Shown one piece after another: positions 934 through 53,646 of a stretch of DNA of 64,000 bases. Positions within the stretch are counted from its first letter, which is position 1. Each line of letters opens with the position of its first letter. Origin of the DNA: Verrucomicrobiota bacterium (GTDB lineage Bacteria > Verrucomicrobiota > Verrucomicrobiia > Limisphaerales > AAA164-E04); NCBI GenBank assembly GCA_047947115.1, contig CP170459.1:3552001-3616000 (forward strand), read 5' to 3'. The notes beneath the pieces were generated by a model. That model was given only the letters and a program-made list of their open reading frames with translations, was not told the DNA's origin and made no database searches. Made by a program: the position numbers and the translations under genes.

Positions 934-1017
934 ATCACGCTGTGTTTATTCTGGTCTGAATTATGGTCAGGAATTAATGTTACCGCCCTCGTTGGCATGG
1001 GAAGTAATGCTTTGAAA

Positions 1018-2229: not shown

Positions 2230-2247
2230 ACGCCGTCATTCTTTCCC

Positions 2248-9053: not shown

Positions 9054-9059
9054 GGTCCA

Positions 9060-12000
9060 TCAAACAGTCAGAGGCAGGCTTCGCGAAGCTTTCCAGTCTT
9101 CAATCAATGCCATGACGGCCGGTATGAAGGTCAGCACCAGCACCGCCGAAACCAGTGTGCCTACCCCCAGGGCAATGGCCATGGGGACCAGAAACAGTGC
9201 TTGGATGCTGGTTTCGAAAATCATCGGTCCCAAGCCCAGGAATGTGGTCAGGGCGGTCAGTAAAATGGGGCGAAAACGTCTCTGTGCCGCCAATACGATG
9301 GCGTCAATGGGGGCGTTGCCCGCTTTCAGGAATTGATCCCGCGTCAGTTCCAGCACAAAAGCCCCGTTCACGACCATCCCGCAAAGTGCGATCATGCCAA
9401 AAACACTGAACACACTGAGATCAAATCCCATCACCACATGCCCCATCACTGCTCCGGCCAGACTCCAGGGAAGCATGAGTAGAACGACCAGGGCCTGCAC
9501 ATAACTTCGGAGCAGGGAAGCCATGATGGCATAAATGGCGAACAGAGAAGCCAGCAAACCCCAGGACAGATTGGTCATGGCCTCTCGTTGTTCCCGCTGT
9601 TCGCCTTCAAAGGAGTAGCGCAGTTGGGGGTACCGTTTGAGAATGCGGGGCAGTTCGGATTTGTCGAACGAACCGAGTACCTTGTTGCCTGTCGTGATGC
9701 CGGGAACGACATTGGCGGTGACATTGATGACCCGGGCTCCATCGACTCGGGTGATGCGCGCCGGAGCATCGGTCAGTTCGATTTTGGCGGCCTGTCTCAG
9801 GGGGATTTCTCCGCCGTTTGGGACTCGTATCAGCAGGTTTTCGAGTCCACTCAACGTTCTGCGTTCGTTCTCGGGGAACTTAACCATGACACGGAGTTCC
9901 TCCCGGTCCATGGGCTGTCTCAATGCCTCCGCGCCATAAAAGGCGTGGCGGATCTGGCGGCCCAGTTCCCGGGCGGTGATCCCAAGACTTCTTCCATCGG
10001 GGGTGATCTCGAAATTAAACTGAGGCATCTCGCGGCCAAAACCTTTTCGGACGTCTTCCACGCCGGGGTATTTCCCGATGGCCGCAGCCACCTCGGTGGC
10101 GGCCTGGCGCAGCACTTCGATTTCAGGATGTGAAATCTGGATGTCAATTTCAGCCGATCCTCCGGGACCGAACAGGTAATCAAAGAACACGGATTCCACG
10201 TCCGGCAGCACGGGGAATTCCTCGCGCCAGAGGCGGGCAAACTCGGCGGAGGTCACCTTACGTTCACTCTGGGAGACAAGTCGTACGGACACCTCCCCGC
10301 CATTCGAACCGCGTTCGGCGACGGAAGTGGTGATGCCGATCAGTATGTTATCCTCGCCCAGCTTGTCTATGGTTCTGCGGGCGGCTTCTTCAATTTGAAA
10401 AGCGACTTGGCGTGTGCGATCGGTGGGCGTGCCTGCTGGCATTTCAATTTCAGCCTGTACAAACGGTGTTTCGATGGAGGGCCGAAACATGAAATCAATG
10501 CGTCCACTGAATGTGTATCCCAACACCCCGAGAAAGGCCGCCACGGCAATGGCGCAGGTGAGCATTCGATGTCTGACGACAGTGTGAATCACCGGGCTGT
10601 ACCACCGATCGATCGCGTTATCAATCCGGATTCGCAATCGTGTTTGCCAGGCATGGAATGATTCATAGAGCGCAAAAACGGGTGTTTGGCTTTGATGGGC
10701 CAGATGTGCCGGCAGGATGAATAGACACTCAAGCAAAGAAACCGTGAACACGGCAATCACCACCGCCGGCAACACGTAGAAAAATTGCCCGGTTTCACCT
10801 GGTACGAATAGAAGGGGGAGAAAGGCGATGATGTTGGTGCTGACGGCAAAGATGACAGGTGTGGCCATGAGTCTGACTCCCTTGACGGCGGCTTCCATTC
10901 GACTCATGCCCAGTGACATGTTATGGAAAATTTCCTCGCCAACCACAACCGCATCATCCACGACAATGCCCAGCGTGACAATGAATCCAAACAGGGAAAT
11001 CATGTTGATGCTTGCATCCATGGCAGGCAGGAGAAAGAGCGATCCTAATACCGAAACCGGGATGCCGACCGCCGTCCAGAACGCGACGCGCAGTTCAAGA
11101 AAAAGACCCAACGCCAGCACAACCAGCATGAGACCGAGGGCTCCGTTGGTCATGAGCATGTTGATCCGCTCTTCGTAATCATCAGAGCGATCAAAGGTGA
11201 CCACGATGCCGACCGATTCCGGAAGGTGCTTTTTCTCTTGTTCAATAAACTTTCGGACGGCTTTGGCGACCGTCAGGGGTGATTGCGATTCCGAACTGTA
11301 GACCGCCAGCCACACGGAAGGGCGTCCGTTGAAATAGGATTCGCGCTCTGACTCCTCAAAGTCGTCCTTGACGATGGCCACATCTTTCAGCCGCACTTTG
11401 GTTCCATCGGCTTTGCTGATGATGGGGATGTTTTCAAATTCTCTGGCAACTTCTTTACGTTCCTTCGTTTTCAGAAGGTAATCTCCGGCCGCGGTTTTGA
11501 TGGAGCCGGCGGGAACATCCAATGCGGCATCATCCACTGCTTCGGCAATGTCATTCAAACGAAGTCCCAGGGACCTTAATTTGGCCTGGGGAACTTCAAT
11601 ATGGACTTCGGGTCGGCGGATGCCTCGCAGTTCGACAAGTGAAATCTCCGGAAGCGACAAAAGCTTTTCTTCCATTTGACGCGCAAAGTCCACCAGTCCT
11701 TTTGCGTCCAGAGCACCATAAATCGACAAATACATCACGCCCCGGCGGCGTCCGTTGTCCAGTGCGATGACCGGTGGTTCAACATCGTCCGGAAACAGAT
11801 TGATGCGTTGCACTGCGGCCGTGATCTCCTGCAACCCGCGGTTGCGATCGGATCCCGGGATCAGTTCCGCAATGATGCGTGCGTTTCCTTCGCTGGCGGT
11901 GGCGGTGATTTTGCGAATAATTTCCATCGTCCGCAGTTCGGACTCGATGGGAAGGATGATGGATTGTTCGACTTCCTCCGGGCTTGCGCCACGGTATTCC

Positions 12001-12188
12001 ATCTGGATTTCGACCGCATCCAGGGTGAAGGTGGGGTAGATTTCCTGCCTAATATTGCGCGCCACCAGCAATCCTGTGCAGATGACTGCTATCATGAGCA
12101 GGTTGGCCGCCACATGATTGCGAGCAAACCAGGCGAGGATGCCGGGGTATCCTGACGATTGACTGGCTGATGGCTGGGCGGCGCTCAT
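9060..12188 (-). CDS. RND (AcrB-family) efflux permease
   Basis: WFARNHVAANLLM, YRGASPEEVE, GIVVDDAVVVGE, RRFRPILLT. Confidence 0.95.
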   Translation of the reverse strand: MSAAQPSASQSSGYPGILAWFARNHVAANLLMIAVICTGLLVARNIRQEIYPTFTLDAVEIQMEYRGASPEEVEQSIILPIESELRTMEIIRKITATASEGNARIIAELIPGSDRNRGLQEITAAVQRINLFPDDVEPPVIALDNGRRRGVMYLSIYGALDAKGLVDFARQMEEKLLSLPEISLVELRGIRRPEVHIEVPQAKLRSLGLRLNDIAEAVDDAALDVPAGSIKTAAGDYLLKTKERKEVAREFENIPIISKADGTKVRLKDVAIVKDDFEESERESYFNGRPSVWLAVYSSESQSPLTVAKAVRKFIEQEKKHLPESVGIVVTFDRSDDYEERINMLMTNGALGLMLVVLALGLFLELRVAFWTAVGIPVSVLGSLFLLPAMDASINMISLFGFIVTLGIVVDDAVVVGEEIFHNMSLGMSRMEAAVKGVRLMATPVIFAVSTNIIAFLPLLFVPGETGQFFYVLPAVVIAVFTVSLLECLFILPAHLAHQSQTPVFALYESFHAWQTRLRIRIDNAIDRWYSPVIHTVVRHRMLTCAIAVAAFLGVLGYTFSGRIDFMFRPSIETPFVQAEIEMPAGTPTDRTRQVAFQIEEAARRTIDKLGEDNILIGITTSVAERGSNGGEVSVRLVSQSERKVTSAEFARLWREEFPVLPDVESVFFDYLFGPGGSAEIDIQISHPEIEVLRQAATEVAAAIGKYPGVEDVRKGFGREMPQFNFEITPDGRSLGITARELGRQIRHAFYGAEALRQPMDREELRVMVKFPENERRTLSGLENLLIRVPNGGEIPLRQAAKIELTDAPARITRVDGARVINVTANVVPGITTGNKVLGSFDKSELPRILKRYPQLRYSFEGEQREQREAMTNLSWGLLASLFAIYAIMASLLRSYVQALVVLLMLPWSLAGAVMGHVVMGFDLSVFSVFGMIALCGMVVNGAFVLELTRDQFLKAGNAPIDAIVLAAQRRFRPILLTALTTFLGLGPMIFETSIQALFLVPMAIALGVGTLVSAVLVLTFIPAVMALIEDWKASRSLPLTV

Positions 12189-12194
12189 GATCGC

Positions 12195-13358
12195 TTAATT
12201 CTCTGACTGAGGGTTCAATTCTGTGCCGGGCACAGCGGATTTGAGCGGGCTGGTAATTAATTTGTCTCCCGGTTTCAGGCCGTTGGAAACATAGACCATG
12301 TCATCCATCTGCCAGAACACCTCGACGTCCCGAATCTGCAACTGATCGTTCGTGTCGACAACCCAGAGTTTGTCACCCGATCTGAGTGAAGATTGTTCGA
12401 TGGCCAGGCAATCCTCCAATTCCCCCGCTTCGATATCCACCCGGACATAACTGCCGATGAGCATGGGAATTTGGGTGGGTGATGGAGCATCCATGGCCTC
12501 ATTTTGAAAGGACACGATCAGCCGCGCCATTCGGCCTTCACGTTCCAGGTCTCCACGCAGTCCGATGACCTTGCCGTTTTTGAGGAACTGCTTTTTGCCT
12601 CCCGATTCATGATAAATGCTCGCTCTGGAACCTTCGTTTTCATCCGACGGAAGACGGATATGTTTGATTTGGTCCACGGGGAGTGAAACCTGAATCCAGA
12701 GTTCATCCGCACCGATCAAGATTGCAGCAGAAAATCCAGGGTCGATGCGTTGCCCCATATCCACGTCTTCATCGAGCACGATGGCGTTGAACGGGGCATA
12801 GAGGCTGTGTCGTTTCAGCATCTCCTCCGAGCGTTGCAGGCCGGCCTTGAGTCTTGCCAGTTCAGCATCCTGAAGCAGGGTTTCGGATTCGAGCATGGCC
12901 AGTTCCGTGTCGGGAATCAGGGAATCGTTGGCCAGGCGTTTGGCTTCGGCGAGCTTTCGTTGTGCTTCCTGGAGGTTGACCGTGGCGCGCGCGACGGCGG
13001 ACTTGGATTCCTGCAATGATATATCGGCGAGCGTGGGATCGATGGCAAAGAGTTCTTCGCCCTTGGCAACGCGTCCCCCGGGAGTCAGTTTGGGGTGGTG
13101 GCGGATGACGAGACCGGTGACTTCCGGTTCAATCGTGACCCGCTTGGCCGGCACGATGCTGCCGTAGGCTGAGACAAAGACGGGGTAGCGATCAGGGCGA
13201 ACTTCTCTTACCTTGACTATTTTTGCTACCGGAGTTTCTTCCTCGGTGGTGACTTGCGGACCTGTTTTGAACAGAAAATAGCTCAGGCAAACACCTCCTG
13301 CCAGTATGAGACATGTCAGGAAAACGCTGGACTTGCTTTGTGAGGAGCTTCGGGTCAT
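12195..13358 (-). CDS. RND periplasmic adaptor (MFP)
   Basis: N-terminal TM; PEVTG, GGRVAKGEELFAID and LYAPFNA motifs; directly upstream of an RND gene. Confidence 0.9.
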   Translation of the reverse strand: MTRSSSQSKSSVFLTCLILAGGVCLSYFLFKTGPQVTTEEETPVAKIVKVREVRPDRYPVFVSAYGSIVPAKRVTIEPEVTGLVIRHHPKLTPGGRVAKGEELFAIDPTLADISLQESKSAVARATVNLQEAQRKLAEAKRLANDSLIPDTELAMLESETLLQDAELARLKAGLQRSEEMLKRHSLYAPFNAIVLDEDVDMGQRIDPGFSAAILIGADELWIQVSLPVDQIKHIRLPSDENEGSRASIYHESGGKKQFLKNGKVIGLRGDLEREGRMARLIVSFQNEAMDAPSPTQIPMLIGSYVRVDIEAGELEDCLAIEQSSLRSGDKLWVVDTNDQLQIRDVEVFWQMDDMVYVSNGLKPGDKLITSPLKSAVPGTELNPQSEN

Positions 13359-25194: not shown

Positions 25195-27336
25195 TTAAAC
25201 GGCTGCGTCCGATTCCAGGAAGCCCTGCAACTGGCGTATACGGGTCGGGTGACGCAGTTTGCGCAGACCTTTGGCCTCGATCTGTCGGATACGTTCGCGG
25301 GTGACCTTGAATTGTTTGCCGACTTCTTCGAGGGTGCGTGCATACCCGTCGTGGAGACCGAAGCGCAGCTCCAGAATCTTGCGTTCGCGTTCGGTGAGCG
25401 TCGTCAGGACGTCATTCAAACGTTCGCGCAGCAGGAGGTGGCTGGTCATGTCCGATGGGTTTTCAGCAGATTTGTCCTCAATGAAATCACCGAAATTGGC
25501 ATCACCGCTGTCCCCCACGGGAGATTCCAGGGAGATGGGCTGCTGGGCCATTTTGAGAACCGCACTGACACGATCGACCGGCAGGTTCATTTCATCGGCG
25601 ATTTCCTCAGCGGTAGGCTCGCGGCCGAATTCCTGCAACAACTGCTTCTGCACACGCATCAGCTTGTTGATGATTTCGATCATGTGGACCGGAATACGGA
25701 TGGTGCGCGCCTGGTCGGCGACGGATCGGGTGATGGCCTGGCGGATCCACCAGGTGGCGTAGGTCGAGAATTTGTAACCCCTGCGGTATTCGAACTTCTC
25801 AACACCTTTCATCAAGCCCATGTTCCCTTCCTGGATCAGGTCGAGGAAGGACAATCCACGGTTGGTATATTTCTTGGCGATGGAGATCACCAGACGCAGG
25901 TTGGCTTCCACCATTTCCGTCTTGGCCTGGTGAGCTTTGGCTGCGAATTCCTTCAACTGTTCATATGCCTCGAGGTAATCCGCGTGCGGCATGCGAACAA
26001 AAGCTTCGAGCGCCTGGATTTTCTGCTCCTCCATCTGGATGTAAGATTGCTGGTGCGTGGAGGATTTTTGACGGTTGAGATCGCTGATCAGGTCCAGGCT
26101 GGCGTGTATCTTTTCGAAAATGTTTTCGGTCACAAGCGTCATTTCCTCAATGACCTTTTGCTTGTAGTAAAACTTGCCGAACATGTTCTGCAGTTTTTTG
26201 TCCGCCTTCAGAAATTCGTCGTGATACTTTTCCTGTGTTTTCTTGCTGCCTGCCTTCTGCCATGCGGCATATTTTTCGTCGACCACCTGATCCTGTTCCC
26301 GTACCTGTTTCACCAGTCGGCGCAGGTATTTCAGGTGTTTGTCCCGGCTGTCGATCTTTTTATCCAGAATGACGCGGTCAAATCGTTCTTTCGGGGGTTC
26401 GGCGATGAGTTTTTCAGCCAGGGCAATATGTTCCTTTCCGGCAAAGCCCATGCTGTAAACGATTTTACGCTGAGCGATTTCGGCGTCTTCGATGCGTTTG
26501 CAGATTTCGACTTCCTGTTCGCGGGTGAGCAGAGGCACTTTACCCATCTGCTTCATATACATGCGAACGGGATCATCGAGGATGTCCAGACGGCCGGCAT
26601 CTTCCTCGTCGTTCTGGTCGTTTTTCTTGATGCGTTCGACTTCAGCTTGATCGACGATTTCGACGTCCAGATTACGCAGGCGATTGTAAACCTCTTCCAA
26701 GTCCTCCGGCGTAATGACCTCCTCGGGGAGCACTTCGTTGATGTCTCCATAGGTCAAATAACCCTGTTCCTGAGCGAGGCTGAGGAGTTCTTTGACGTAT
26801 TCGGTCAGGTTGACGCCTGATTTGCCGGATGGCGGGTTTAATTCTTCCAATTCCTCTTCGGTTTTGGATTTATTCTTGGATTTGTCTTTGGCCTTGGCTT
26901 TGGCCTGGCGCTGGATTTCTTCCAGAATGGATTTTGTGCGAGCGACTGCTTCTTTATTTTTTTTCGCTTTGCCGGCGTCATCACTTATGGCCTTTTTTTT
27001 GGTTGCTTTGGATTCCTTGCTGGCCGTCGCAGAGGGCGCTGCAGCTTTATTGCCAGCCGCCGCTTTGTCGCCAGCTTTGGTTTTGGCCGGTTTATTGGTG
27101 GTGACTTTGGCTGATTTTGTTGATTTGGGCTTTGCTGCAGCTTTTTTTGGCAAACTCTTTGATGCCGTGCTGGTTTTTGACTTGCTGCTGGTAGGGGCTT
27201 TGGCCGAATTAACTTTTCTTTTTTCGGTGTCGGCAGCTTTTTCTGGCTTGGTGGCTTTTTTGGTTACAGTGCTTGCCTTCGCCTTTTGAGGGGCGGATTT
27301 GGACTTGGCGGTTGTTGCCTTTGATTTTTTGACCAT
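25195..27336 (-). CDS. rpoD: Primary sigma-70 factor with a long Lys/Ala-rich N-terminal extension
   Basis: Region 1.1 [13 protein letters not shown], region 1.2 [12 protein letters not shown], region 2 [28 protein letters not shown], region 4 [20 protein letters not shown]. Confidence 0.97.
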
Positions 27337-27731: not shown

Positions 27732-30700
27732 TTAATCTGACGGTGGCAGGGTTTTCAGTTTAATCTCCCGATTTGGAAAACGCTCCCTCAGAGACAAGTG
27801 AAATTGGTCTGCCCAGTAGGTCCAGTTCATGGATTGAAACAGTTCTATTCTCTGGCAAAGAAGCGAAAGGTCCTGGTCATCTTCCTTGATCAGTGGGCTG
27901 AGTCGATCCAGTGCTTTACCGAAGGAAGCTTCTCTCTGTGCCTCCCAAACCTCAAGAAGTCTGTAAACCCCTTCACTGGTGTCCACCCACGTTCGCAATT
28001 CGTCCAATGCCTCTTCAAATGCGGATGATCTTTCGTCCAAGCTCGATTCCAGCTGAGACAGGGAGCGGGCTTTGCGGTGCAGCAGGTCGAGGAAGTGTTC
28101 TCGATTTTCCTGCATTTGTTGATGCAATTCCTTTTCTGCGTGATTTTTCAGTTGGTGGCGCATGGAAAAGTAATTTCGAATGCTCCGGGTATCGATACCG
28201 GCAAGCATCTTATTCAAGTGCAGAATGAGCGAATCCAGGCCTGAGCTTTGGTTTTTTCCATCCAGGTGGGTCAACATGATGTCTTCCAGTTCTTTGGAAA
28301 AGGGACGCTTGGTAGTCAGGTTTTCGTACAGTGCATTGAATGTTTCAATGGATGCCGGGTTGCTGCTCATGTTTCTCAGATGGCGCACCTGGGTGTTCCA
28401 TAGCATCTCTTCCAAATCCTTACCTTGATCCGGAAGTGTGGTCGGATCTTCCTTGGCCGAGGGGATACCCGGTGTTGGGATCCAGGTGATCCTGGTGTTC
28501 AATTTGGCACCATGGTGTCGGTCGCTATCCAGCCATTGAAGGTCTCCTGTCAATGCGGAAACATGATTCTGTTGTGATTGGGCGTCCACCGAGTCACTTG
28601 GCACAAATAGCCAGAGGTTCTCCGTTTCGCCTCGATCAAAGGTGCGCCAGGGACTGTCTCCTTTCCTCAGAGCTGCGGCGCTGGATAAGGAGGTATTGAT
28701 CTGGATGGCGAGCGGGGAGGCGAGATTTTGATGGAGTACCAGCGGCATGTTTTTGATCCTTTCCAATAAGTCTCGGTCGTCATGCCAGATTTGCAAGGTG
28801 AGTGAGAGTGGGCCTTTGGGGACTGAAATCGGGTCTGTCCAGGCATCGTCCTGAACCAACAAACGTCCATGCTGATCCTCCAGCCTCCAAAGCAGTGAGC
28901 TGTAAGGGGAATCATATAGTAATTCTGACAGGCCGTGCCATTGCGGTGTGATGGGTTGATCTGTTGTGTTCTCCCAATGATAGACCATTTTCAGCACAGA
29001 CAAAGGTTCGTCGTTGACCAGCGGGTCTCTTGGGTCCTTGGACGCCTCAATGGCATGCTTGTGTGGGATCAACGAAAGCAGTCTTCCGGTCAGGTTTCCT
29101 CTGGGTTTGAGGTGGATTTGATCTTGAATGCCCTGGGCAGAGAGGGGAACGATCGTGTTCCCTGCCGGTATGACGAGCGATTCCTGAAACCGTCCTGTTC
29201 CCCTGAACCGAACATGCACCTTGAGATTCATCTCGCTTCGATTGGACCAATAGGAGGCAAAGGCCCATTCCATCGTACGATTGCCCGTTACAGGGATGCT
29301 TCCATGGTATTCAGAAAGCTCCTCGGCCCGGATATATTTTTTCCATTCATGTTCATTGAAACGCTTTTCGGGTTCCAGTTGCGTCGTATGGAGCGCCAGT
29401 CTGTCAAGGGGAGCCAACGATTCGCCTTCAATCGAGAACTCCGCCCATTGGGCCCAGGCTGGGGGGCTGAGAAAGAATCTGGAAACATCCCCCGGTTCAA
29501 GGGAAATTTCCTGTTGCCAGGTCTGCGAGGCGGAATCGTTTGTTGGATGTGGGACCATGGCGTGCACCGGGATGCGGAATAAGGGTTTGCCGGAATGCAT
29601 GTCTTTGCCCTGTATGTAGGATGCATAAGCTCCTGGTGACAAATGTCGGGTGTCCACCAGCACACTGATTTTTCCTTGCGTCCGGTGAATCAGCACGGAA
29701 TCAGGAAATTCAATCCAGTCCGCATCGGATTCAAGTGAAGCCCACACTTCGAATTCGGCTTTTTGTGACGGGGATATCTCCTCAGGAAAAATCGGTTCGA
29801 TGCTGATGCTGTGACGTGTGGGAACTTCGAGGTCTGCCCGTTCTCTGAGCAGGATTCCCCGGCCGGATGATTGACTTGAATTGCGAATTTCGTAACCCCG
29901 AATCACGGTGTCCTGTGCATCCTGGCAAAGTGCTTCAAACGCCGCTTCAACCCGGATCAGCCCAGCTCCCTGTGAAAAACGATCTATTTCCGGCATGAAC
30001 AGGGCGGCATTCTCGAGAGCCATCCGCACCTGATAGGGTTGCCAGTCGATGTGTTTCTGTTTCAGCCCGGAGAGAATCAGGGAGATGGAACCGCAAGCAT
30101 AGGGTGAAGCCATGGAGGTCCCATTCATCTGCATGGCGGGTTGCAGACTGGAGGTGGGTACCGGGGCAATCGCTCCTCCTGGCGCGCAAAGATTGACCCC
30201 CAGATCTCCGTCCAGAGTGGGGCCGCGCGAGGACCAGGTATAAAGGGTGTTTTGAGGTGCGTGTGAGATTCCGTACTGCAGCGGCATCATGGAACGATGC
30301 ACGTAAGCACCGATGGCCAGGATGGCCGAGGTGGTTCCTCCGGGGGCTCCGACGGTTGACAACGCCGGCCCCTCATTGCCGGCCGAGGCGACATAGATGA
30401 CATTGTGTTCATTGACCAGATGGTTCACCTGGTCGATGAACCATCCTTTGTTGGGGGTGGACGATGGTTCCCCGTAGCTCATGTTGATCAAATCACAATC
30501 CAGATCTCTGACCATTCTCAGGGCTCGTTGCAGGGCGATGCCCGTTTCCATGCCGTCGAGGTGGGTGTCGCCTATTTTGATGGAGACAATCTGAACTCCT
30601 GGCGCTATGCCGTTTCTTTCGGGGGCATCCGGGTAATAGGCACCGATCATGCCGGCAACATGTGTTCCGTGGGCACTCGATGGAACAACGATGGATAGCA

Positions 30701-31538
30701 GGTTGCCGTCATTGTAAACATGGACGCCGAAATGTACCAGATTGTCCGGTCCGAAACCCGCGTAGGATTGATTCACCGAGTATTCGCCCAGCAATGTTTC
30801 ATCCGAAAGATCGCCATTCGAATTGGTGTCGACCACTGCTTGCCACAGGTTGTCTGATTTGAAGACCACGCAGTCGAAGACCGGTGACGCCGGAGAAAAA
30901 TCTTTTTCCAGTTTCTCAAGAAGGTCCATGCGTTTTTCGAGATCTGCTTCCCTCGATGTTCTTTGATCTTCCGGCAGGTCTTGATCAGACCTAAGCCTTA
31001 CGAGCTCGGACTCTATGGAAGCTTTGTATGTCTCATTGGTTTTGAGCATTTCCTTTCGTAGTTCTGCTTCATAAAGATTCCACACCGATCCACCCATCAG
31101 ATCCTTTGCACGTGTCATGCCCAGATGGAAGATTCGATCCGGCAACAACCAGTCCGGATGCAGTTTCAATTCACGACCGGAAAGTCCCACGAGCGTGCCT
31201 TCATCGGATGCCTTGGCTATTTTGCTCGTGTCCACGTCGCCACTGCCGGTAGCGTCCAGAATGTCCACTATCTTGGGCAACCCCAGGGTTGTCCCTGCCA
31301 GTCCATGCGCTCCCGGATCCACGCCCGAGTCAAGGACGGCAACTCGAATCCCGCGTCCATCGTAATCCGCATGTTGCTCAAGAAAGGATCGCACCCCGGT
31401 GATCTGTTTGGGAAGAAAACCTTCATGAGAGGAGGTATCTGCTCCCATCGCCGAACACATCGGGATCAGGATGGCCAGAATAGTCCGTTGCAAACGTTGG
31501 TGTATGACCGGTATTTGGGATGGAATTGTTAGCGGCAT
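27732..31538 (-). CDS. Tripeptidyl-peptidase II homologue (S8 subtilase)
   Basis: LPK..TG...F....YDGRG, LDSGVDPGA, DATGSGDVDTS, HGTHVAG, GMETG, MSYGE, SAGNEGPALSTVGAPGG, YTWSSRGP, MNGTSMASP, followed by a long C-terminal region. Start is ATG 31538 or TTG 31574. Confidence 0.92.
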   Translation of the reverse strand: MPLTIPSQIPVIHQRLQRTILAILIPMCSAMGADTSSHEGFLPKQITGVRSFLEQHADYDGRGIRVAVLDSGVDPGAHGLAGTTLGLPKIVDILDATGSGDVDTSKIAKASDEGTLVGLSGRELKLHPDWLLPDRIFHLGMTRAKDLMGGSVWNLYEAELRKEMLKTNETYKASIESELVRLRSDQDLPEDQRTSREADLEKRMDLLEKLEKDFSPASPVFDCVVFKSDNLWQAVVDTNSNGDLSDETLLGEYSVNQSYAGFGPDNLVHFGVHVYNDGNLLSIVVPSSAHGTHVAGMIGAYYPDAPERNGIAPGVQIVSIKIGDTHLDGMETGIALQRALRMVRDLDCDLINMSYGEPSSTPNKGWFIDQVNHLVNEHNVIYVASAGNEGPALSTVGAPGGTTSAILAIGAYVHRSMMPLQYGISHAPQNTLYTWSSRGPTLDGDLGVNLCAPGGAIAPVPTSSLQPAMQMNGTSMASPYACGSISLILSGLKQKHIDWQPYQVRMALENAALFMPEIDRFSQGAGLIRVEAAFEALCQDAQDTVIRGYEIRNSSQSSGRGILLRERADLEVPTRHSISIEPIFPEEISPSQKAEFEVWASLESDADWIEFPDSVLIHRTQGKISVLVDTRHLSPGAYASYIQGKDMHSGKPLFRIPVHAMVPHPTNDSASQTWQQEISLEPGDVSRFFLSPPAWAQWAEFSIEGESLAPLDRLALHTTQLEPEKRFNEHEWKKYIRAEELSEYHGSIPVTGNRTMEWAFASYWSNRSEMNLKVHVRFRGTGRFQESLVIPAGNTIVPLSAQGIQDQIHLKPRGNLTGRLLSLIPHKHAIEASKDPRDPLVNDEPLSVLKMVYHWENTTDQPITPQWHGLSELLYDSPYSSLLWRLEDQHGRLLVQDDAWTDPISVPKGPLSLTLQIWHDDRDLLERIKNMPLVLHQNLASPLAIQINTSLSSAAALRKGDSPWRTFDRGETENLWLFVPSDSVDAQSQQNHVSALTGDLQWLDSDRHHGAKLNTRITWIPTPGIPSAKEDPTTLPDQGKDLEEMLWNTQVRHLRNMSSNPASIETFNALYENLTTKRPFSKELEDIMLTHLDGKNQSSGLDSLILHLNKMLAGIDTRSIRNYFSMRHQLKNHAEKELHQQMQENREHFLDLLHRKARSLSQLESSLDERSSAFEEALDELRTWVDTSEGVYRLLEVWEAQREASFGKALDRLSPLIKEDDQDLSLLCQRIELFQSMNWTYWADQFHLSLRERFPNREIKLKTLPPSD

Positions 31539-31578
31539 TGTTCTGGTAATAAATGATGGATGTTTAATAAGCAACTGC

Positions 31579-32880
31579 TTACTTGGTTGCTGTGTCCGGA
31601 TGAATCCACGGCTTTTTCTGTAGGGTTCTCATTGTTTGAAGGAGTTGAGAGTCATCCCGCTCCTGAATGTCTGCGTTGGTGGGGTCCATTGCCTTCAACA
31701 AGTGATGGGTTGCCGTTCGAACCTCCATCTCACCATGAAACTGATCTCTGAGGAAATGAATGCATTTCATGCATTGGAAGCCGTCGAACCATTGAAAGAA
31801 ACGGCGTTGATAAGCTTCGAACCCGGCTGTGCCTCTGAAGCATGATGTCCAACTGTTCCAACCATCCGTCGCATCCAGGAAATCTCCAATCCGGCTTGAA
31901 ACCTGATCCTTGGGGAGGAAAGTTTCATCCTTATTGGCGAAAGGATCATGAGCGCGTGCCAGTTGGAAAAACGACTTAAGATCCATGAAGGCCTCCCAGG
32001 GATAAGTGGGAAAATTCTTTTGCCCCAGATGTTTGGAAACAGCTCTTCCAGTGCCGAAAGGAACTCGGTCCGATGGTCGCGGTGAGGGGAATACAGTTGT
32101 GTCCGTTAATTCCGTGAAATGTCCCAATGGGATGATTTTGTGCAGAAAGTAAAAATCTTCTCCGGCTTTGCGTCGGTTCATACCGCCCTGAGCCATATAG
32201 ACCGGGGCTCTCACTCCCATCGATGATCCAATGGTATGGAAGGCATGAGGGAAACCTGCATGCCGCAGTGCCTGCACATAATACCTTAGATGCAATTCGT
32301 AGAGTCCGGCCGTTTCATAAATGTCCGGTGCAAGGTTGCCGGAGAGGGGATGTTCAAAGTGAAGGCTGCATCCTGGCGTTTTGGGATGTGTTTGAAAATG
32401 AGATTCGAGCGCGGTCAGATAGTTGCTTTCGCAGATGCTGTCTGCATCCAGACCGACGATAAACCCGTCGTTCAGAAAACCTGATTGATCCAATCGGTGC
32501 AGCGCCTCATCCATTCCGATCTTTCGAGCCAAACCCACACCGGCGTTTTTTGGGGGGAGATTCATGGCATCGATGACATGCATGTTCAGTTTGGATGTGC
32601 TGTGCTGTTTCGTGAATGCAGTGATTTCCTCATATGCATGCGTTTGTTCCGTGCGTATGTTTTCGGCAGCCGAAGCACTGGCATTCACCACCACAAGCAC
32701 TTCAAACGAACCATTTGGGGGATCGCATTGCATGAGGGAAATCAGCGTGTCCTTCCAATCCGGTTCCAGGTAGCAGGGTATGACGATGACACCCACCAAC
32801 GCTTCGGCTGGCGGAGTGACGATGACGGGTGCATTACCCTGAAAGCGGGTGATGTATCGGTCCAACCTTTTCTCAGTCAT
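31579..32880 (-). CDS. Glycosyltransferase family 2-like protein
   Basis: VIVIPC, GVGLARKIGMD, DxD (LDADS), GGM...AGEDFYF. Confidence 0.8.
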   Translation of the reverse strand: MTEKRLDRYITRFQGNAPVIVTPPAEALVGVIVIPCYLEPDWKDTLISLMQCDPPNGSFEVLVVVNASASAAENIRTEQTHAYEEITAFTKQHSTSKLNMHVIDAMNLPPKNAGVGLARKIGMDEALHRLDQSGFLNDGFIVGLDADSICESNYLTALESHFQTHPKTPGCSLHFEHPLSGNLAPDIYETAGLYELHLRYYVQALRHAGFPHAFHTIGSSMGVRAPVYMAQGGMNRRKAGEDFYFLHKIIPLGHFTELTDTTVFPSPRPSDRVPFGTGRAVSKHLGQKNFPTYPWEAFMDLKSFFQLARAHDPFANKDETFLPKDQVSSRIGDFLDATDGWNSWTSCFRGTAGFEAYQRRFFQWFDGFQCMKCIHFLRDQFHGEMEVRTATHHLLKAMDPTNADIQERDDSQLLQTMRTLQKKPWIHPDTATK

Positions 32881-33770: not shown

Positions 33771-36314
33771 TCAGGGGCCGACGGTGGCCACCGTCATCCG
33801 ATCGCTGACAAAGTAAGTCTGTGCCGCTCGCTGGATGTCCTCCAGCGTGACCGCTTGGATGGCCTTGTCTTCGCTCAGGTGGTTTTCGTAGCCCAGACCA
33901 TATAGCTCATCCAAAGCCGTGTTCATGGCGAGGTTCCCCAGATCTTGCCGGGCGATTTGTTTCTGACCAAGCAGCTTGGCCTTGGATCGGTCGAGTTCTT
34001 TGCGAGTGATGCCTTCAATTTTGATCTTGTCAAATTGTGCCAGGAACTCTGCTTTGACCTGTTCTACATGTTCGGGGGAGGTGCCTGCATAAAAACCGAA
34101 ATATCCGGGCACCAATCCGGGCATGTGCTGCGCTCCAACGTAATAGGCCAGCCCCAGTTCATCCCTGATGCGCATGAACAGTCTGGACCCCAGGTCACTG
34201 CATGTTTCTTGAATCAAATCCAGAGCGTAGCGATCTTTGTCAAAGAAGGTGGTTCCTTTGAAGCCAAACACCACCACGGCTTGCTTCTTGTCGCACTTTT
34301 CAGAGACCTCCTGTTGCTGGATGGCGGCTTCGGGTGTTTCGGACGGCAAACGTACCGGCTCGGACTTGGGGGCGTTCTCCCACCATTTCATGAGAGAATC
34401 CTTCATTTGATTCACATCAATGTCTCCGAAAACGGCGGTCACCTGATTGCCGGGAACGACCAGTTTGCTGAAATGGGCCTGGACTTTGTCGAGTTGCAGT
34501 GATTGGACCGACCCTTCCTCTCCGGATGTGCTCAGGCCGTACTGAGCTTCTCCGAACAATCCACGACGCATGATTCGAAAACACCGACTAAGGAGGTGAT
34601 CTTTTTGAGATCGGATCCCGGCCAGTTGAACCTGTCGTTCACGTTCCATTTCCTGCTCGGGAAAGGTACTGTGTCGTAGGATGTCCTGAAGCGTTTCCAT
34701 TCCAAAAACGGCATCCTGGTTCAATACTTCAATATTCAACCCGAAACTGTTATTTCCTGCGTAAGATTCGATGCTGCCACCGACGGATTCGACGGACTCC
34801 ATGAGCTGGACCGCCGTGTGGTGGGCGGTGCCTTTAAGAAGACCTTGTCCCATCCATTGGGTGATGCCACTGTTTTGTGGGGTTTCCTCCAGCACTCCGC
34901 CATAGAAAACCGATCGAACCTCCACAAAAGGCAGGCGTTTGTCGTCCATGAAAAGGACGCGCATGCCGTTACCGGGTTCCCATTTTTCAATCTCAGATTT
35001 TCGGGCGGTTGTGGTGCGAGCTGATTTCCTGGGAGTGCATCCTTCGGGAAGCAGAGCAAATAGAGAGCGGTTATCCGAAACCAGATATCGTTTGGCCGCA
35101 TCAATGACCTGGGCGGGTGTCAGGGATTGGACTTCCTTCAGGTATCGGTCTGAAAAATTCAAATCACGGGCCGCCATCCAGGCGCTTCCGAGGTCCTGTG
35201 CCTGGCCCTGCATCGTTTTGCGAGAGGACAAGGTGGCGGAGGTGAATTGCTTGATGGTTTTGGAGAGTTCCGATTCTGAAATGCCTTTTTCAAGCGTGCG
35301 GTCGATTTCCGCCTGCAACGCCTCCATGACCGGGGTGAACTGATCTCCATCAAAAACGGCGCTGGCGCCAAATAACCCCGGCTTTCCCGGATTATAGGTC
35401 CAGGCATCGATGGCGTGCACGATGCCGAGTTCTTCGCGCAAACGTCGGTAAAGACGGGAACTTCGTCCTCCACCCATCAGAATGGAAAAGGCTTCCAGGG
35501 CGGGGAGATCCTGATGACGCACGTCCGGTATGTGCCAGGACACATGGGCGTGTCCCAGTTCAATGGGGGACTCTTCGATGCGTTGTCTGGGGGAAAGCTG
35601 ACGTGGTTCCGGAAGGATATAGGGAGGTTCCAGCGGACGAAAGCGAGCGTCCTGATACGCTTCACACATTTGCGCCATGATCTCTTCGGTGTTCATGTCG
35701 CCCACCACCACGAAAAACTGGTTCGAAGGGGTGTACATGGTCTGATAGTATTCAAACACGTCCTCCCTTCGAATACGATCAAAGACATCCGGATACCCGA
35801 TGACCGTGTAACGATAGGGAGAATGGAGGTAGGCCGTTTCGAACAAACCGCGTCCGGAGCGTCTTGATGGATCGTCGTGGTTCATGTCCATCTCTCTGCG
35901 GATGACATCCAGTTCACTGACCAATTCATCCTCCGGCAGGGTGGCGTTTTGCATGATGTCCGTGAGGATGTCCACAGCCACTCCGGCACCGGAGGACGGG
36001 GCATTGATGTAATAAACGGTTCGGTCGAACGAGGTGTAGGCGTTCATGTAACCGCCTGCTTCCTGCACTTCCTGGTCGATGCGGCCTTTGCCTCTTGTCT
36101 TGGTGCCCTTGAAAAGCATGTGTTCCAGCACATGCGACAAACCAGCCCCCAACCATTTTCCCTCGTGAATGCTTCCTGCTTCGCACCAGGCCTGGACGGA
36201 AACGACGGAACTACTCCTGTCTTCGAGCAGGATGACGGTCAGTCCGTTGGGGAGTGTGCAGAGTTGGGCGCCGGATGGCTGGATGGAGCGTGAGTAGGCT
36301 GCTGAGCTGGACAT
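33771..36314 (-). CDS. M16 (insulinase/pitrilysin family) zinc peptidase, two-module fusion
   Basis: LPNGL, HVLEH inverted zinc motif, MNAYTSFDRT; the second module lacks HxxEH. Confidence 0.93.
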   Translation of the reverse strand: MSSSAAYSRSIQPSGAQLCTLPNGLTVILLEDRSSSVVSVQAWCEAGSIHEGKWLGAGLSHVLEHMLFKGTKTRGKGRIDQEVQEAGGYMNAYTSFDRTVYYINAPSSGAGVAVDILTDIMQNATLPEDELVSELDVIRREMDMNHDDPSRRSGRGLFETAYLHSPYRYTVIGYPDVFDRIRREDVFEYYQTMYTPSNQFFVVVGDMNTEEIMAQMCEAYQDARFRPLEPPYILPEPRQLSPRQRIEESPIELGHAHVSWHIPDVRHQDLPALEAFSILMGGGRSSRLYRRLREELGIVHAIDAWTYNPGKPGLFGASAVFDGDQFTPVMEALQAEIDRTLEKGISESELSKTIKQFTSATLSSRKTMQGQAQDLGSAWMAARDLNFSDRYLKEVQSLTPAQVIDAAKRYLVSDNRSLFALLPEGCTPRKSARTTTARKSEIEKWEPGNGMRVLFMDDKRLPFVEVRSVFYGGVLEETPQNSGITQWMGQGLLKGTAHHTAVQLMESVESVGGSIESYAGNNSFGLNIEVLNQDAVFGMETLQDILRHSTFPEQEMERERQVQLAGIRSQKDHLLSRCFRIMRRGLFGEAQYGLSTSGEEGSVQSLQLDKVQAHFSKLVVPGNQVTAVFGDIDVNQMKDSLMKWWENAPKSEPVRLPSETPEAAIQQQEVSEKCDKKQAVVVFGFKGTTFFDKDRYALDLIQETCSDLGSRLFMRIRDELGLAYYVGAQHMPGLVPGYFGFYAGTSPEHVEQVKAEFLAQFDKIKIEGITRKELDRSKAKLLGQKQIARQDLGNLAMNTALDELYGLGYENHLSEDKAIQAVTLEDIQRAAQTYFVSDRMTVATVGP

Positions 36315-36394
36315 GTCAAGTGATTCATTGGATCATCCACTCTATCGGGACATGGGGGCATGTTCGGGCAGAGGCGGATGATTGTAAGCAGGGG

Positions 36395-36844
36395 TCAGGC
36401 CCTGTCCTTTTGTGTTTGGTTTGATCTTGGTTTTTCCGGGGAAAAGGGAAGCCGCATGCGGGGAAGGAAAGGTTTGCGAAAAGCTTCCTCAAAGTCATAA
36501 ATGGATTTGAAATCTTCGCGGGTATCGTCCGCAGTCTTTGAAAGCAGTTTGCTGTCAACCATGTTGAACACAATCTCCCCGAAATCTTCGCACCTGGTAA
36601 CGCCCCAATCGTTGAGGACGGTCAAGGCCATGGGGCCGAACTGTTCAATGGCGAGATCACGAATGCCCTCCAGCAATTCTTTGCCGCTGACGTGTTGGGG
36701 TTGCTTGCGCCCCGAGCTTGGTTTTCTGAGCTGGGCCTGGGTATGGTCCAGCGCGTCCCTGAGGAAATAATAGGCGTCTGCCGCAAACCGTGGATCGGTC
36801 TGCGAAATCTGCTCAATAGTCTGGTCAAAGTCTAGTGTCTGCAT
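36395..36844 (-). CDS. Minf_1886-family (Verrucomicrobia/Planctomycetes-conserved) protein
   Basis: DPRF..DAY.F, HVSGKELLEG, FGPMA..VL..WG...EDFGEIVFNMV, DTREDF. Confidence 0.85.
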   Translation of the reverse strand: MQTLDFDQTIEQISQTDPRFAADAYYFLRDALDHTQAQLRKPSSGRKQPQHVSGKELLEGIRDLAIEQFGPMALTVLNDWGVTRCEDFGEIVFNMVDSKLLSKTADDTREDFKSIYDFEEAFRKPFLPRMRLPFSPEKPRSNQTQKDRA

Positions 36845-39441: not shown

Positions 39442-39808
39442 CTTTGCTTGAGATACTTTGGTTTTCAAAAAAATGAAACTCAAAAGCGGTTTTGACCCGA
39501 TTGCAGTCTGCGGATGTTCAAGTTGAGAAGGTCATCCAAACTTTCCCTCCCTCGAAGATATTCTTGAGCAAAAGAATGGGAACGTGGGTAGACAGAGCTT
39601 TGTCGAGTAACTGTGTTGTTTCCATTGCAGCGTGAAAAGGGATCCAAAGCTCTGAGGTTTGAAATGGCTGCAAGACGGCGCTTTCCCCTCCGAAAATGGA
39701 TTTATATTTATTGATCTCCGTCCAGAGGTGGGCAGAGAAATGCTTGCCGATTCGTATAAATCCGCGATGATGTCGCGAGTTCATGGATTTTCAAACATGT
39801 TGCCAGTT

Positions 39809-42466
39809 ATGAATACCATCAGGAATCAATTCTGCCCTTTCGTCTTCAGAATCACCCTTTGTTTTTTCTTTACCTGCTTTGCGGGTTTTTCTGCCGAAAT
39901 CCCAGCGGGGCCAAATCCCCAAATTCCGGATGATCCCGAAGCCATTGCTCCGGGGCCGTATCCTAATGACAGCGTGACAGCGGTTAGTTACATCATTGAC
40001 GCCTCACAGGTAACTCAACACAACAGCGCCGAGAGAGATGATATCATCTTTTCCATGGAAGGGCAGGGGCCCATCCCTTGGACATTGACCAGCTATGGCC
40101 GCGCCCAGGTGGCTCCCCGTATTGGAGCCCCAAGTGAGGAAGCCAGTAACAGTAATCTCGGTGTGATTCCCTTCGATATCATTGTGCAAGGGAGGCGATA
40201 TGAGTGGAATAATGATCTTTCTTTCTGGGCCCCGTCGGGAGCAGCTTGGAGACCGCATCCTTCCAAAGGGGTCATGTTGGGAACGATTCGTAAGAATGGC
40301 GAGGAATGGGATGATCAGGCATCTCATTTTTACGGAGTTTTGAGTGTGCCTGCAAGTGGTTCGGATGGAGAGGGCTACAGTATGGTGGACGGGGCTTTCG
40401 GGCCCGGGGATATGGATGTTGTCACGGACAAGGTTGGGATAGAATCCTTTGCGGCCATTGATTTCAGTCTGGCATGGTTCCCGTTTGATCAAGGGTGGAC
40501 AGGTGGTTTTATCTCCTCGCCCAGCCCCGATTTTCAGGAAGGAGAATGGCTGGCTCCGGGATATCATAGCAGTGATTTGCCGGATGACGCCGCAAGCTTG
40601 ATTCAGTGGACTCGTGCCTTTGCCACGTGGGCGGTCCCCGGAGCCCTCAAGTTGCCTGGAGTGAACTCCAAAACCGATGGCATGCTTTTCATGACCTCGG
40701 TCGCTCCTTCATCTGCCAGTGGAATGATCCTTTCGCCAGCCGCAAAGGACGATGGCTCTGGCTGGGATGTCTGGGGGCGATTCAACACCGAATCCGATCC
40801 TCTTTTCCAAGAGGAATCCAATCTTGATTTTTCCTTCCTCTTCGTGCCCTACAATACTGATCGATTGATCGGTGCCCATATACGTGGTACGGACGGCGCT
40901 GTCATCAACGGACGAGGCAACTTCATCATGAAACGTTTAGGGACCGGTCAATATGAACTGTCCATTCCAAACAAAACGGGCAAAAACGGTATGGTGATTC
41001 TTCAAGCCACCGGAAGGCATCGACAGAATGGTCGTGATACAGAGGCTGCGTCACGTGATTTTCTGTCCTATGAAGAGACCGAACCAGGCAAATTTGTCAT
41101 CGAATCGCGTTATTATCAGAACGACTCGAGTTTTCCTCTGGAAGACACTGAATTCTATTTTGCCTGGGTAGATTTTATCGCACCTTTGGCTCCTGCCGGC
41201 TCGACTCCATTACCCGATCCGCCAGTGATCAGTCAGCAGCCTGCCAATGTGGAAGCACAGCAGGGGGAATCCGCCACGTTCACAGTGAAGGCATCCGGAG
41301 AGGGGCCTTTCGAATACCAATGGCAATTGAATGAAACGGACATTCCCGATGCCAATACCGACACTTTCACCATCGCATCTGCTTCTACAACCGATAGCGG
41401 TACCTATCGAGTTTTGGTGAGCAATTTGGGTGGATTGACTACCAGCTCGACAGCTACCCTGACGGTGCACACGCCGCCCGTCATTACCCAGCAACCTTCC
41501 AACCGTTCCATCAAGGCGGGAGAGACCTTTTCCCTGAGCGTAGGAGTGCAGGGGACCGGCAATCTTCAATATCAATGGCAATTCAATCAGCAGAACCTTT
41601 CGGATCAGACGCGGCAAACGTTGACGATTTCTTCCGTTCAACTTTCCCATGCAGGGCAATACCGGGTGATTGTCACCTCTCCGGGAGGGCAGGTTTTCAG
41701 TGAGTCGGCAGTGGTGACAGTGGATGCCTCTGTCGCGGCTCAAGCCCCTCAGATCACCCGGCAACCACAAAGCCAGACCGTTGCGGTTGGCGCTGAAGTG
41801 CGCTTGTCGGTTCAGGCAACCGGGAGTGACCCTCTGAGTTACCGATGGCAGATCAGTAACTTCAACATACCTGGTGCATCCGGACCGGAGTTTGTCATTT
41901 CAGACGCTCAACCGGGTGATTCCGGTGAGTATAAAGTGGTGGTATCCAATGAAGCCGGTAGCGTGATCAGTCAGATTGCATTGGTGACTGTCACCCAGGC
42001 TCCAGTGATTACCCGCCAGCCTCAATCCGTGATCGCGCAGTCCGGTCAGGACATTGCTTTCACAGTGGAAGCCACTGGATTGGCTCCGTTGACATTTCAG
42101 TGGCGTTTCAGCGGGTTCAATATACCTGGAGCGCGAAGCGCACAATTTGCAATCAGCAATATACAACCTGCCGATTCAGGCAGTTACAGTGTGATCGTTT
42201 CCGATGCAAGCGGAGCTCAAACGATCAGTCAGGAAGCCATCCTGACAGTTTCTGAAGACCCGGTCGTGCAGCTTTCCATCGCATCTGCTTCACTTTCAGG
42301 CGGTGGTATCTTGATTGAGTGGGAAGGCGGAGAGGGTATCGTGCTTCAAGCAAAAGCAGCGTTGAGTGATAGTGTCTGGCGTGATGTCCCTGGTACCGAA
42401 GGGCAGAATCAGACCTTGCAGGCTTTGATTGGACAATCCGCTTTTTATCGTCTCATTCAACGGTGA
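39809..42466 (+). CDS. Exported protein: unknown N-terminal region, four Ig (I-set-like) repeats and a C-terminal FYRL-type domain
   Basis: Signal-like N-terminus; four P.I..QP...G....V...G..P..YQW...D.G.Y.V.V repeats at about 41215-42250; ends W....LQ....L...W..V...AFYRLIQR. Confidence 0.85.
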   Translation: MNTIRNQFCPFVFRITLCFFFTCFAGFSAEIPAGPNPQIPDDPEAIAPGPYPNDSVTAVSYIIDASQVTQHNSAERDDIIFSMEGQGPIPWTLTSYGRAQVAPRIGAPSEEASNSNLGVIPFDIIVQGRRYEWNNDLSFWAPSGAAWRPHPSKGVMLGTIRKNGEEWDDQASHFYGVLSVPASGSDGEGYSMVDGAFGPGDMDVVTDKVGIESFAAIDFSLAWFPFDQGWTGGFISSPSPDFQEGEWLAPGYHSSDLPDDAASLIQWTRAFATWAVPGALKLPGVNSKTDGMLFMTSVAPSSASGMILSPAAKDDGSGWDVWGRFNTESDPLFQEESNLDFSFLFVPYNTDRLIGAHIRGTDGAVINGRGNFIMKRLGTGQYELSIPNKTGKNGMVILQATGRHRQNGRDTEAASRDFLSYEETEPGKFVIESRYYQNDSSFPLEDTEFYFAWVDFIAPLAPAGSTPLPDPPVISQQPANVEAQQGESATFTVKASGEGPFEYQWQLNETDIPDANTDTFTIASASTTDSGTYRVLVSNLGGLTTSSTATLTVHTPPVITQQPSNRSIKAGETFSLSVGVQGTGNLQYQWQFNQQNLSDQTRQTLTISSVQLSHAGQYRVIVTSPGGQVFSESAVVTVDASVAAQAPQITRQPQSQTVAVGAEVRLSVQATGSDPLSYRWQISNFNIPGASGPEFVISDAQPGDSGEYKVVVSNEAGSVISQIALVTVTQAPVITRQPQSVIAQSGQDIAFTVEATGLAPLTFQWRFSGFNIPGARSAQFAISNIQPADSGSYSVIVSDASGAQTISQEAILTVSEDPVVQLSIASASLSGGGILIEWEGGEGIVLQAKAALSDSVWRDVPGTEGQNQTLQALIGQSAFYRLIQR

Positions 42467-53534: not shown

Positions 53535-53646
53535 GGAAATATGAGCCCTACGGTAAGAACATCCGCATCGTACGTCAAGTTGAGCCACACCCAGTGTGTC
53601 TTTTGTGTTTGGGGATTTCGAAGGGGACGATATGAGCTTCAAAAAC

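Follow-up and report, generated by a model that had tools for sequence, protein, structure and literature searches.

What is a tripeptidyl-peptidase II (TPPII) doing in a bacterium? This enzyme is treated as a cytosolic protein of eukaryotes, with two bacterial cases gained by transfer (PMC6713707). A 64,000-nucleotide stretch from a marine or estuarine-type genus of the Verrucomicrobiota (assembly GCA_047947115.1, contig CP170459.1, positions 3,552,001 to 3,616,000; hereafter the window) contains such a gene on its reverse strand at positions 27732..31574. An earlier interpretation made from the letters of the window alone (the sequence-only reading) described this gene as a full-length TPPII with exactly conserved catalytic spacing, rare among bacteria and possibly exported. 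Here we report that the gene is a variant of a known enzyme, not a new system. The questions that it raises concern the location of the enzyme, its role and the origin of its family.

The frame of this gene is open through 1280 codons without interruption. Its first possible start is a TTG at 31574 (27732..31574, 1280 residues; all coordinates of this gene refer to the reverse strand), and all residue numbers are counted from this codon. The start codon is probably the ATG at 31538 instead (27732..31538, 1268 residues). Records of the protein in two databases (Atlas and a protein collection) begin at this ATG, which is residue 13, and L002, the closest relative, retains an ATG at the corresponding place. 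The gene is single-copy per genome. Judged by its sequence and a structural model, it encodes a complete, full-length TPPII. The subtilase catalytic domain (PF00082, residues 73-538, 29961..31358, Pfam E 5.3e-45) includes the insert between the catalytic Asp and His (D-H insert, residues 83-301, 30672..31328), which is predicted to form a long helical hairpin (model helices 162-196 and 202-224) and contains a glycine, Gly290, aligned to Drosophila Gly260. Three TPPII-specific domains follow with scores over their curated cut-offs, as expected for the full-length enzyme that the sequence-only reading had proposed: the first immunoglobulin-like domain PF21223 (residues 567-670, 29565..29876, 61.4 bits, cut-off 27), the galactose-binding-like domain PF21316 (residues 693-778, 29241..29498, 47.3 bits, cut-off 27.3) and PF12580 (residues 821-990, 28605..29114, 96.3 bits, cut-off 29.7). 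The Pfam scan of the protein gave no match to PF12583. The C-terminal helical domain (residues 1006-1268, 27771..28559) is homologous to the C-terminus of eukaryotic TPPII: a profile built from 63 eukaryote-side C-termini (defined below) gives it 123.7 bits, while the best of 200 shuffled sequences scored 2.8. Using phmmer, we found Drosophila TPPII (3LXU) to be the best solved relative (E 5.6e-147; runner-up 1.4e-15). An AlphaFold2 model of residues 50-1245, computed from a 60-row alignment (mean predicted local distance difference test score 90.8), superimposes on 3LXU with template-modelling scores of 0.80/0.78 (Z 44.2, root-mean-square deviation 4.3, 1111 residues, 26% structural identity) and reaches 3LXU residue 1326. 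In phylogenetic trees, the protein falls within the TPPII core clade (support 99-100).

The active-site residues named by the sequence-only reading are all at the positions claimed. Counting along the phmmer alignment to 3LXU pairs catalytic Asp82 (31329..31331), His302 (30669..30671) and Ser487 (30114..30116) with D44, H272 and S462 of the Drosophila enzyme. The oxyanion-hole residue Asn400 (30375..30377) was assigned from its sequence position and the family alignment. Two glutamates, Glu343 in a GMETG motif (30546..30548) and Glu369 in MSYGE (30468..30470), align with Drosophila Glu312 and Glu343 and with Tyr104 and Gly128 of subtilisin BPN'. In subtilisin, these two residues line the S4 pocket. 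In eukaryotic TPPII, the two glutamates serve as the ruler that measures off tripeptides, and this double-Glu ruler is intact in the bacterial protein.

To describe the family, we used an alignment of 227 rows that FastTree splits (support 99) into 80 and 147 rows. Fourteen rows of the smaller side were looked up; seven have eukaryote sources or names and none has a bacterial one. The larger side contains all genome loci. We refer to these as the eukaryote-side and the bacterial rows. Positions 343/369 are Glu/Glu in all 80 eukaryote-side rows and in 86 of the 147 bacterial rows, Ser/Gly in 60 bacterial rows and gap/Gly in one. Because no row keeps a single Glu, the pair appears to act as one unit. 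As far as these alignments tell, bacterial TPPII splits into a double-Glu and a Ser/Gly type that are never mixed, and the present gene belongs to the former. In the Ser/Gly type, the S4 pocket would stay open. The glycine of the D-H insert is common to all groups (78/80 eukaryote-side, 84/86 double-Glu and 60/60 Ser/Gly rows).

This split bears on whether the protein, once exported, is mainly an endopeptidase or a small oligomer that retains both glutamates and the insert for some other reason. The 60 bacterial rows that do without the glutamates speak for this alternative, as does a 2009 study by Eriksson that reportedly judged the TPPII homologue of Blastopirellula marina not to keep TPPII function. 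Another residue also differs: at position 482, Gln is present here and in 55 of 86 double-Glu rows, whereas 63 of 80 eukaryote-side rows have Leu; the activation loop may therefore not be the same. Yet both glutamates are invariant together in 166 rows from two domains of life, and the Blastopirellula and Bremerella loci that we examined are of the Ser/Gly type, a state that fits the reported verdict on B. marina and sets them apart from the present gene. We give this alternative a small chance.

The spacing of the active-site residues is less informative than it first seemed. For the ruler and oxyanion residues of human TPPII, we take the numbers to be E305, E331 and N362, which found no confirmation in the literature searched. 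The human triad is D44/H264/S449 (PMC2933905), and S449 is required for activity (PMC10879859). The constant +38 offset from mammalian TPPII stressed by the sequence-only reading does arise when residues are numbered from the TTG at 31574, but it becomes +26 from the ATG at 31538, and the exact match is partly chance. The full set of five gaps between the six residues (220, 41, 26, 31 and 87) is shared by only 8 of the 81 double-Glu bacterial rows, by 2 of the 58 Ser/Gly rows and by 3 of the 73 on the eukaryote side. The four gaps after the first are typical of the family (77/81 double-Glu rows), whereas the Asp-His gap varies, with a bacterial mode of 219 and values of 216 or 220 even inside the genus. 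An Asp-His spacing of exactly 220 is without special meaning, and the match to the human values is, on these counts, a family trait plus chance.

Where would this enzyme reside? The N-terminus holds a predicted Sec signal peptide (residues 13-45, 31440..31538) with an n-region ending in HQRLQR, the h-region TILAILIPM and a cleavage site likely after A42 or A45. This prediction follows from a home-made rule that combines a hydrophobic window, an upstream Lys or Arg and a small-residue cleavage site. The hydrophobic stretch noticed earlier is real: at widths of 9, 11, 15 and 19, no other window in the protein is more hydrophobic. Of 135 testable bacterial rows, 124 satisfy the rule; of 68 eukaryote-side rows, none does. 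A predicted signal is thus a family-wide trait on the bacterial side. For this count, 12 of the 147 bacterial rows without a start were set aside, loci were read on the in-frame upstream stretch, near-duplicates and the present protein were counted, and three rows were moved to the eukaryote side. A largely separate match set gave 92 positives among 99 testable rows. Relatives in the genus keep the n-h-c plan with unrelated letters. A propeptide is absent: the 3LXU-aligned region begins ~7-10 residues past the predicted cleavage site, and the Pfam scan gave no match to an inhibitor-I9 propeptide. Taken together, these comparisons make export a strong prediction for the bacterial family and a reasonable one for the present copy.

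Some observations tell against export and would suit a cytoplasmic enzyme in intracellular peptide turnover, made from a start at Met39 or Met43 or with an extension that is no working signal. The rule is loose, with positives in 207 of 1994 internal windows and in 32 of 174 Walker-A non-membrane open reading frames (ORFs), a false-positive rate of 10-18% on these controls; it also scores 1209 of the 2718 starts of long ORFs in the host genome as positive. The signal of the present protein is weaker than those of its relatives, with an 18-residue n-region, a Pro in the h-region and a Met at -3 of one of the two sites. In-frame ATGs do occur at residues 39 and 43, and neighbours such as rpoD are cytoplasmic housekeeping genes. 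On the other hand, five relatives (L003, L005, L006, L007 and L010) have no ATG past the hydrophobic stretch, and among database proteins that include a start Met, 57 of 62 bacterial ones have a hydrophobic window, compared with only 2 of 68 eukaryote-side proteins. A cytoplasmic location has a slim chance at best.

Cysteine content was also compared between the two sides. The bacterial rows average 5-6 cysteines and the eukaryote-side rows 18, a difference that counts in favour of export, although the low number may be a general bacterial trait. C235, C360 and C494 are conserved in 83-97% of bacterial and 54-68% of eukaryote-side rows. Formation of disulfides by these residues in an oxidising compartment is possible.

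We judge the likely role of the present protein to be that of a periplasmic, Sec-exported, full-length TPPII that feeds the cell by cutting tripeptides off the N-terminal ends of imported oligopeptides. The enzyme would pass through Sec to the periplasm, where signal peptidase I would remove ~30-33 residues. Located where subtilisin lines its S4 pocket with Tyr104 and Gly128, Glu343 and Glu369 would block S4 and anchor the free amino group of the substrate, three residues away from the scissile bond. Since there is no propeptide, activation would come from self-association via the retained D-H insert, as in eukaryotes. Eukaryotic TPPII is activated by formation of a complex that exceeds 5 MDa (PMC2933905). 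We consider the prospects for multi-MDa spindles of bacterial TPPII about even, because insert, hairpin and Gly290 are kept, but the glycine also occurs in divergent relatives and Gln482 differs. The assembled enzyme would trim imported peptides to tripeptides, which could enter the cell by POT symporters or an Opp/Dpp-type system. The own genome encodes two POT proteins and one family-5 solute-binding protein (SBP_bac_5), all elsewhere in the genome. It contains no match to the proteasome/HslV family (at 95.8% completeness), so that the eukaryotic role downstream of the proteasome would have no partner here. Planctomycetes are described as gathering macromolecules in an enlarged periplasm (PMC5394234), and a similar compartment has been reported in four Verrucomicrobia (PMC2647929).

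The same exopeptidase could also work outside the outer membrane, on the cell surface, or anchored to the inner membrane by an uncleaved signal. A complex of more than 5 MDa (PMC2933905) is a poor fit for an ordinary periplasm, a lipobox-like motif occurs in 7 of 60 bacterial rows, and the cleavage site of the present protein is ambiguous. As an anchor, the hydrophobic run is short (best 19-residue mean 1.24). Cys40 is conserved in 1% of double-Glu rows, so the present protein is not a lipoprotein, and Pfam finds no secretion-specific domain. We regard these locations as distinctly unlikely.

Several further points caution against the periplasmic feeding role. The papers on an enlarged periplasm concern Planctomycetes and other Verrucomicrobia, not the present genus. 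POT is near-universal in these lineages with or without TPPII (38/41; 38/39 in one family), so that its presence shows availability only. Among 33 Planctomycetota genomes, all 9 that carry the double-Glu type have POT, compared with 1 of the 4 that carry the Ser/Gly type and 3 of the 20 that carry neither. A coupling between POT and TPPII was nevertheless rejected in favour of kinship, given that one family has POT in 38 but TPPII in only 14 of 39 genomes. Parts of the TPPII gene were found in 20 RNA runs. We do not read these contigs as a sign of transcription, because the neighbouring genes are covered as well: contigs of four runs cover 28-30 of the 30 bins of an 18 kb stretch.

How widespread is this gene? 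The sequence-only reading considered a bacterial TPPII rare, a view that does not survive a survey of genomes. Homologues occur in all seven genus relatives searched. In the rest of the family, none of 14 genomes has one, and in the rest of the order, 2 of 19 families do. A pattern scan of a genome collection matched 158 stretches, of which 122 were confirmed and 79 loci returned. Without the frameshifted locus L026, the 78 loci used comprise 47 from Planctomycetota, 29 from Verrucomicrobiota, one from Latescibacterota and one without assignment. Almost all named carriers are Planctomycetota or Verrucomicrobiota; as the scan patterns were built on sequences of Verrucomicrobiota, carriers in other phyla may have been missed. 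An even sample gave 3 of 300 Verrucomicrobiota genomes, all with the divergent type and none with the core type, and 19 of 300 Planctomycetota genomes (12 core and 7 divergent, with at most two candidates scored per genome). In one planctomycete family, 14 of 39 genomes carry the gene. Two other approaches were less sensitive: a genome scan with a single TPPII protein as query gave no match, and PF12580 by itself picks up few bacterial copies (2/301). Homologues in two planctomycetes, Blastopirellula marina and Rubinisphaera brasiliensis, have been described (PMC6713707). We found no literature on exported or verrucomicrobial TPPII in a search whose coverage excluded subscription papers, including the primary TPPII literature.

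From which side did the family arise? The sequence-only reading had proposed gene transfer between eukaryotes and the Planctomycetota-Verrucomicrobiota-Chlamydiota (PVC) group. In our rooted trees, eukaryotic TPPII falls as one clade inside exported PVC subtilases; as to direction, the trees favour a bacterial origin over transfer from eukaryote to bacterium. With D-H-insert subtilases as outgroup, mostly named as Actinomycetota or Chloroflexota, an IQ-TREE analysis of 73 rows under LG+C20 placed two PVC groups successively outside a core made up of eukaryotic and bacterial TPPII (97 and 100) and the eukaryotes in one clade (99). When the Glu columns were dropped, the nesting in PVC stayed (96 and 99) and the order within the core dissolved. 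A sister relation of eukaryotes to double-Glu bacteria (93) was lost by the same step and was discarded. Approximately unbiased (AU) tests on a 35-row set rejected all PVC rows as one clade, the arrangement of a eukaryote-first root (p 0.012), and also rejected joining the core bacteria to a plant (p 0.014), to rows P0043/P0038 (p 0.027) or to the opisthokont-side rows (p 0.020). The core bacteria as one sister clade were not rejected (p 0.19). These supports are Shimodaira-Hasegawa approximate likelihood-ratio test (SH-aLRT) or SH-like values from quick trees without bootstrap and with a risk of long-branch artefacts. The five AU tests are uncorrected, were picked after the earlier trees were known and use ~490 columns. 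The trees have a distant outgroup and no archaeal rows, and several rows were assigned by tree alone. One of these, P0091, counted as eukaryotic on its tree position alone, lay outside the eukaryote clade in another tree and was not included in the 35-row set.

On this sequence evidence, we hold a bacterial (PVC) origin of the TPPII family to be probable; eukaryotic TPPII then likely derives from an old exported PVC family by loss of the signal peptide. The reverse, that bacterial TPPII came from a eukaryote, is an independent matter from function, and we consider it unlikely, though by no means negligible. A eukaryotic origin with transfer to two planctomycetes has been hypothesised (PMC6713707), and TPPII is patchy in bacteria, as the counts of 0 core and 3 divergent carriers per 300 Verrucomicrobiota and 19 per 300 Planctomycetota illustrate. 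The distant outgroup could attract fast-evolving PVC copies. The verrucomicrobial genus sits on a long branch in FastTree. The donor may also have belonged to the eukaryote stem or to a lineage that was not sampled, and the AU test retained the core bacteria as one sister clade. Against a eukaryotic source stand the single clade of eukaryote-side rows (SH-aLRT 97-99), the two successive PVC groups outside the core (support 96-100), the rejection of a single PVC clade and of three eukaryotic donors (p 0.012-0.027) and the Ser/Gly state, which is the same as that of the outgroup. A more elaborate history is conceivable but doubtful: TPPII would have begun as an exported subtilase of PVC bacteria, acquired its extra domains and later the double-Glu ruler, and formed giant digestive spindles in an enlarged periplasm; after transfer to the eukaryote stem, it would have lost its signal peptide and so become a cytosolic partner of the proteasome. 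A bacterial origin, if true, would fit the reported planctomycete contribution to the eukaryote ancestor, amounting to 2.24% of the ancestral proteome (PMC13468126). TPPII terms gave no match in the accessible text and four supplementary files of that paper; data deposited elsewhere could list TPPII.

Two groups of relatives lie outside the core. Verrucomicrobial TPPII-like proteins (L098-L100 in G177, G253 and G220, and P0144) have 1300-1400 codons, carry SSYG/SWGG at the ruler positions and branch just outside the TPPII core; L098-L100 lack the glutamates, and PF12580 is weak or absent in them. A large planctomycete subtilase family (L114-L120, P0171-P0289) includes members with tetratricopeptide-repeat-like C-termini and unusually short signal peptides without basic residues. 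From its sequences, this family looks like a precursor stage of TPPII.

The surroundings of the gene point to no common pathway. The position between a glycosyltransferase-like gene and rpoD is conserved within the genus only, so that operon logic offers no clue. A recent transfer into the present genome was considered, but the GC content of the gene (0.526 vs 0.511 for the genome) and genus-wide synteny speak against it, and we take the gene to be a resident member of its family. No sigma-70-like promoter was found on the gene strand; two sites lie on the opposite strand, where 4.8 were expected. The glycosyltransferase-like gene (31579-32880, reverse strand) encodes a 433-aa protein with sub-threshold matches to glycosyltransferase family 2, ends 4 bases before the TPPII frame and adjoins TPPII in six genus loci. 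RpoD (25195-27336, reverse) has a Lys/Ala-rich N-terminal extension of ~175 residues, and its gene shows a 12-base deletion in one RNA-run contig. In two genus relatives, the TPPII gene itself is disrupted. In G005:C57:27331-31026 (L010, L012-L015), it lies in several frames with stops, from decay or assembly error; in G002:C102 (L007, L011), it is split between opposite strands of one scaffold, with 27 kb between the two parts and the first of them at the scaffold end, which is probably an assembly artefact. Elsewhere in the window are an 847-aa two-domain M16 peptidase (33771-36844, reverse) that adjoins a gene of the Minf_1886 family (TIGR04138, a Planctomycetes/Verrucomicrobia family), a 935-aa protein (39659-42466, forward) that contains four immunoglobulin I-set repeats and whose N-terminal region matches nothing in Pfam, a hydrolase of the S15 family (X-Pro dipeptidyl-peptidase/CocE; 51654-53642, reverse) at a distance of 20 kb from TPPII, and a convergent cluster of three AcrB-family RND transporter and two membrane-fusion genes (892-13358), in which one RND protein is longer than usual (1224 aa).

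What is new here is the strict split into two types, the prevalence figures and a rooted, AU-tested case for a bacterial origin. These results suggest a large PVC family, exported for the most part, in which types with and without the ruler occur naturally beside simpler relatives that resemble steps in its assembly. They open the questions as to how an endopeptidase became a tripeptidyl exopeptidase, when spindle assembly arose and whether TPPII exemplifies the planctomycete contribution to the eukaryote ancestor (PMC13468126). Both types can be tested in cultured bacteria, namely with the double-Glu Planctomicrobium loci L049 and L057 and the Ser/Gly Bremerella cremea locus L077.

How does the present protein compare with known systems? 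With eukaryotic TPPII (Drosophila 3LXU, human TPP2; MEROPS S08.090, subfamily S8A), it shares domain order, fold, triad, oxyanion Asn and double Glu, and likewise the D-H insert with its conserved Gly, the helical C-terminal domain and the lack of a propeptide. It differs by its signal-like extension, Gln for Leu at 482, fewer cysteines, the undetected PF12583, a structural identity of 26% and a bacterial host without proteasome match. Canonical cytosolic TPPII has no signal peptide, whereas our home-made rule predicts one here. Classical secreted subtilisins carry a propeptide between signal and catalytic domain; the present protein has none. The homologues of Blastopirellula marina and Rubinisphaera brasiliensis are, as here, full-length TPPII from PVC bacteria (PMC6713707). 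The present gene is verrucomicrobial and double-Glu, while the Blastopirellula/Bremerella loci that we examined are Ser/Gly. The direction of transfer proposed in PMC6713707 is opposite to ours, and the accessible portion of that paper mentions neither signal peptides nor subtypes. Tripeptidyl peptidase S (TPPS) from Streptomyces lividans (MEROPS S08.091) is a bacterial subtilase that releases tripeptides like TPPII; both are S8 tripeptidyl exopeptidases, and the published grouping sets TPPS apart from TPPII (PMC9549277). Finally, the PVC subtilases L114-L120 share with the present protein the D-H insert, a His-Ser gap of 184-185, PF21223 and a hydrophobic N-terminus (102/109 rows), but they lie outside the TPPII core, show no PF12580 or PF21316 in the six loci scanned and, in 117 of 119 rows, carry Gly at the position of Glu369.

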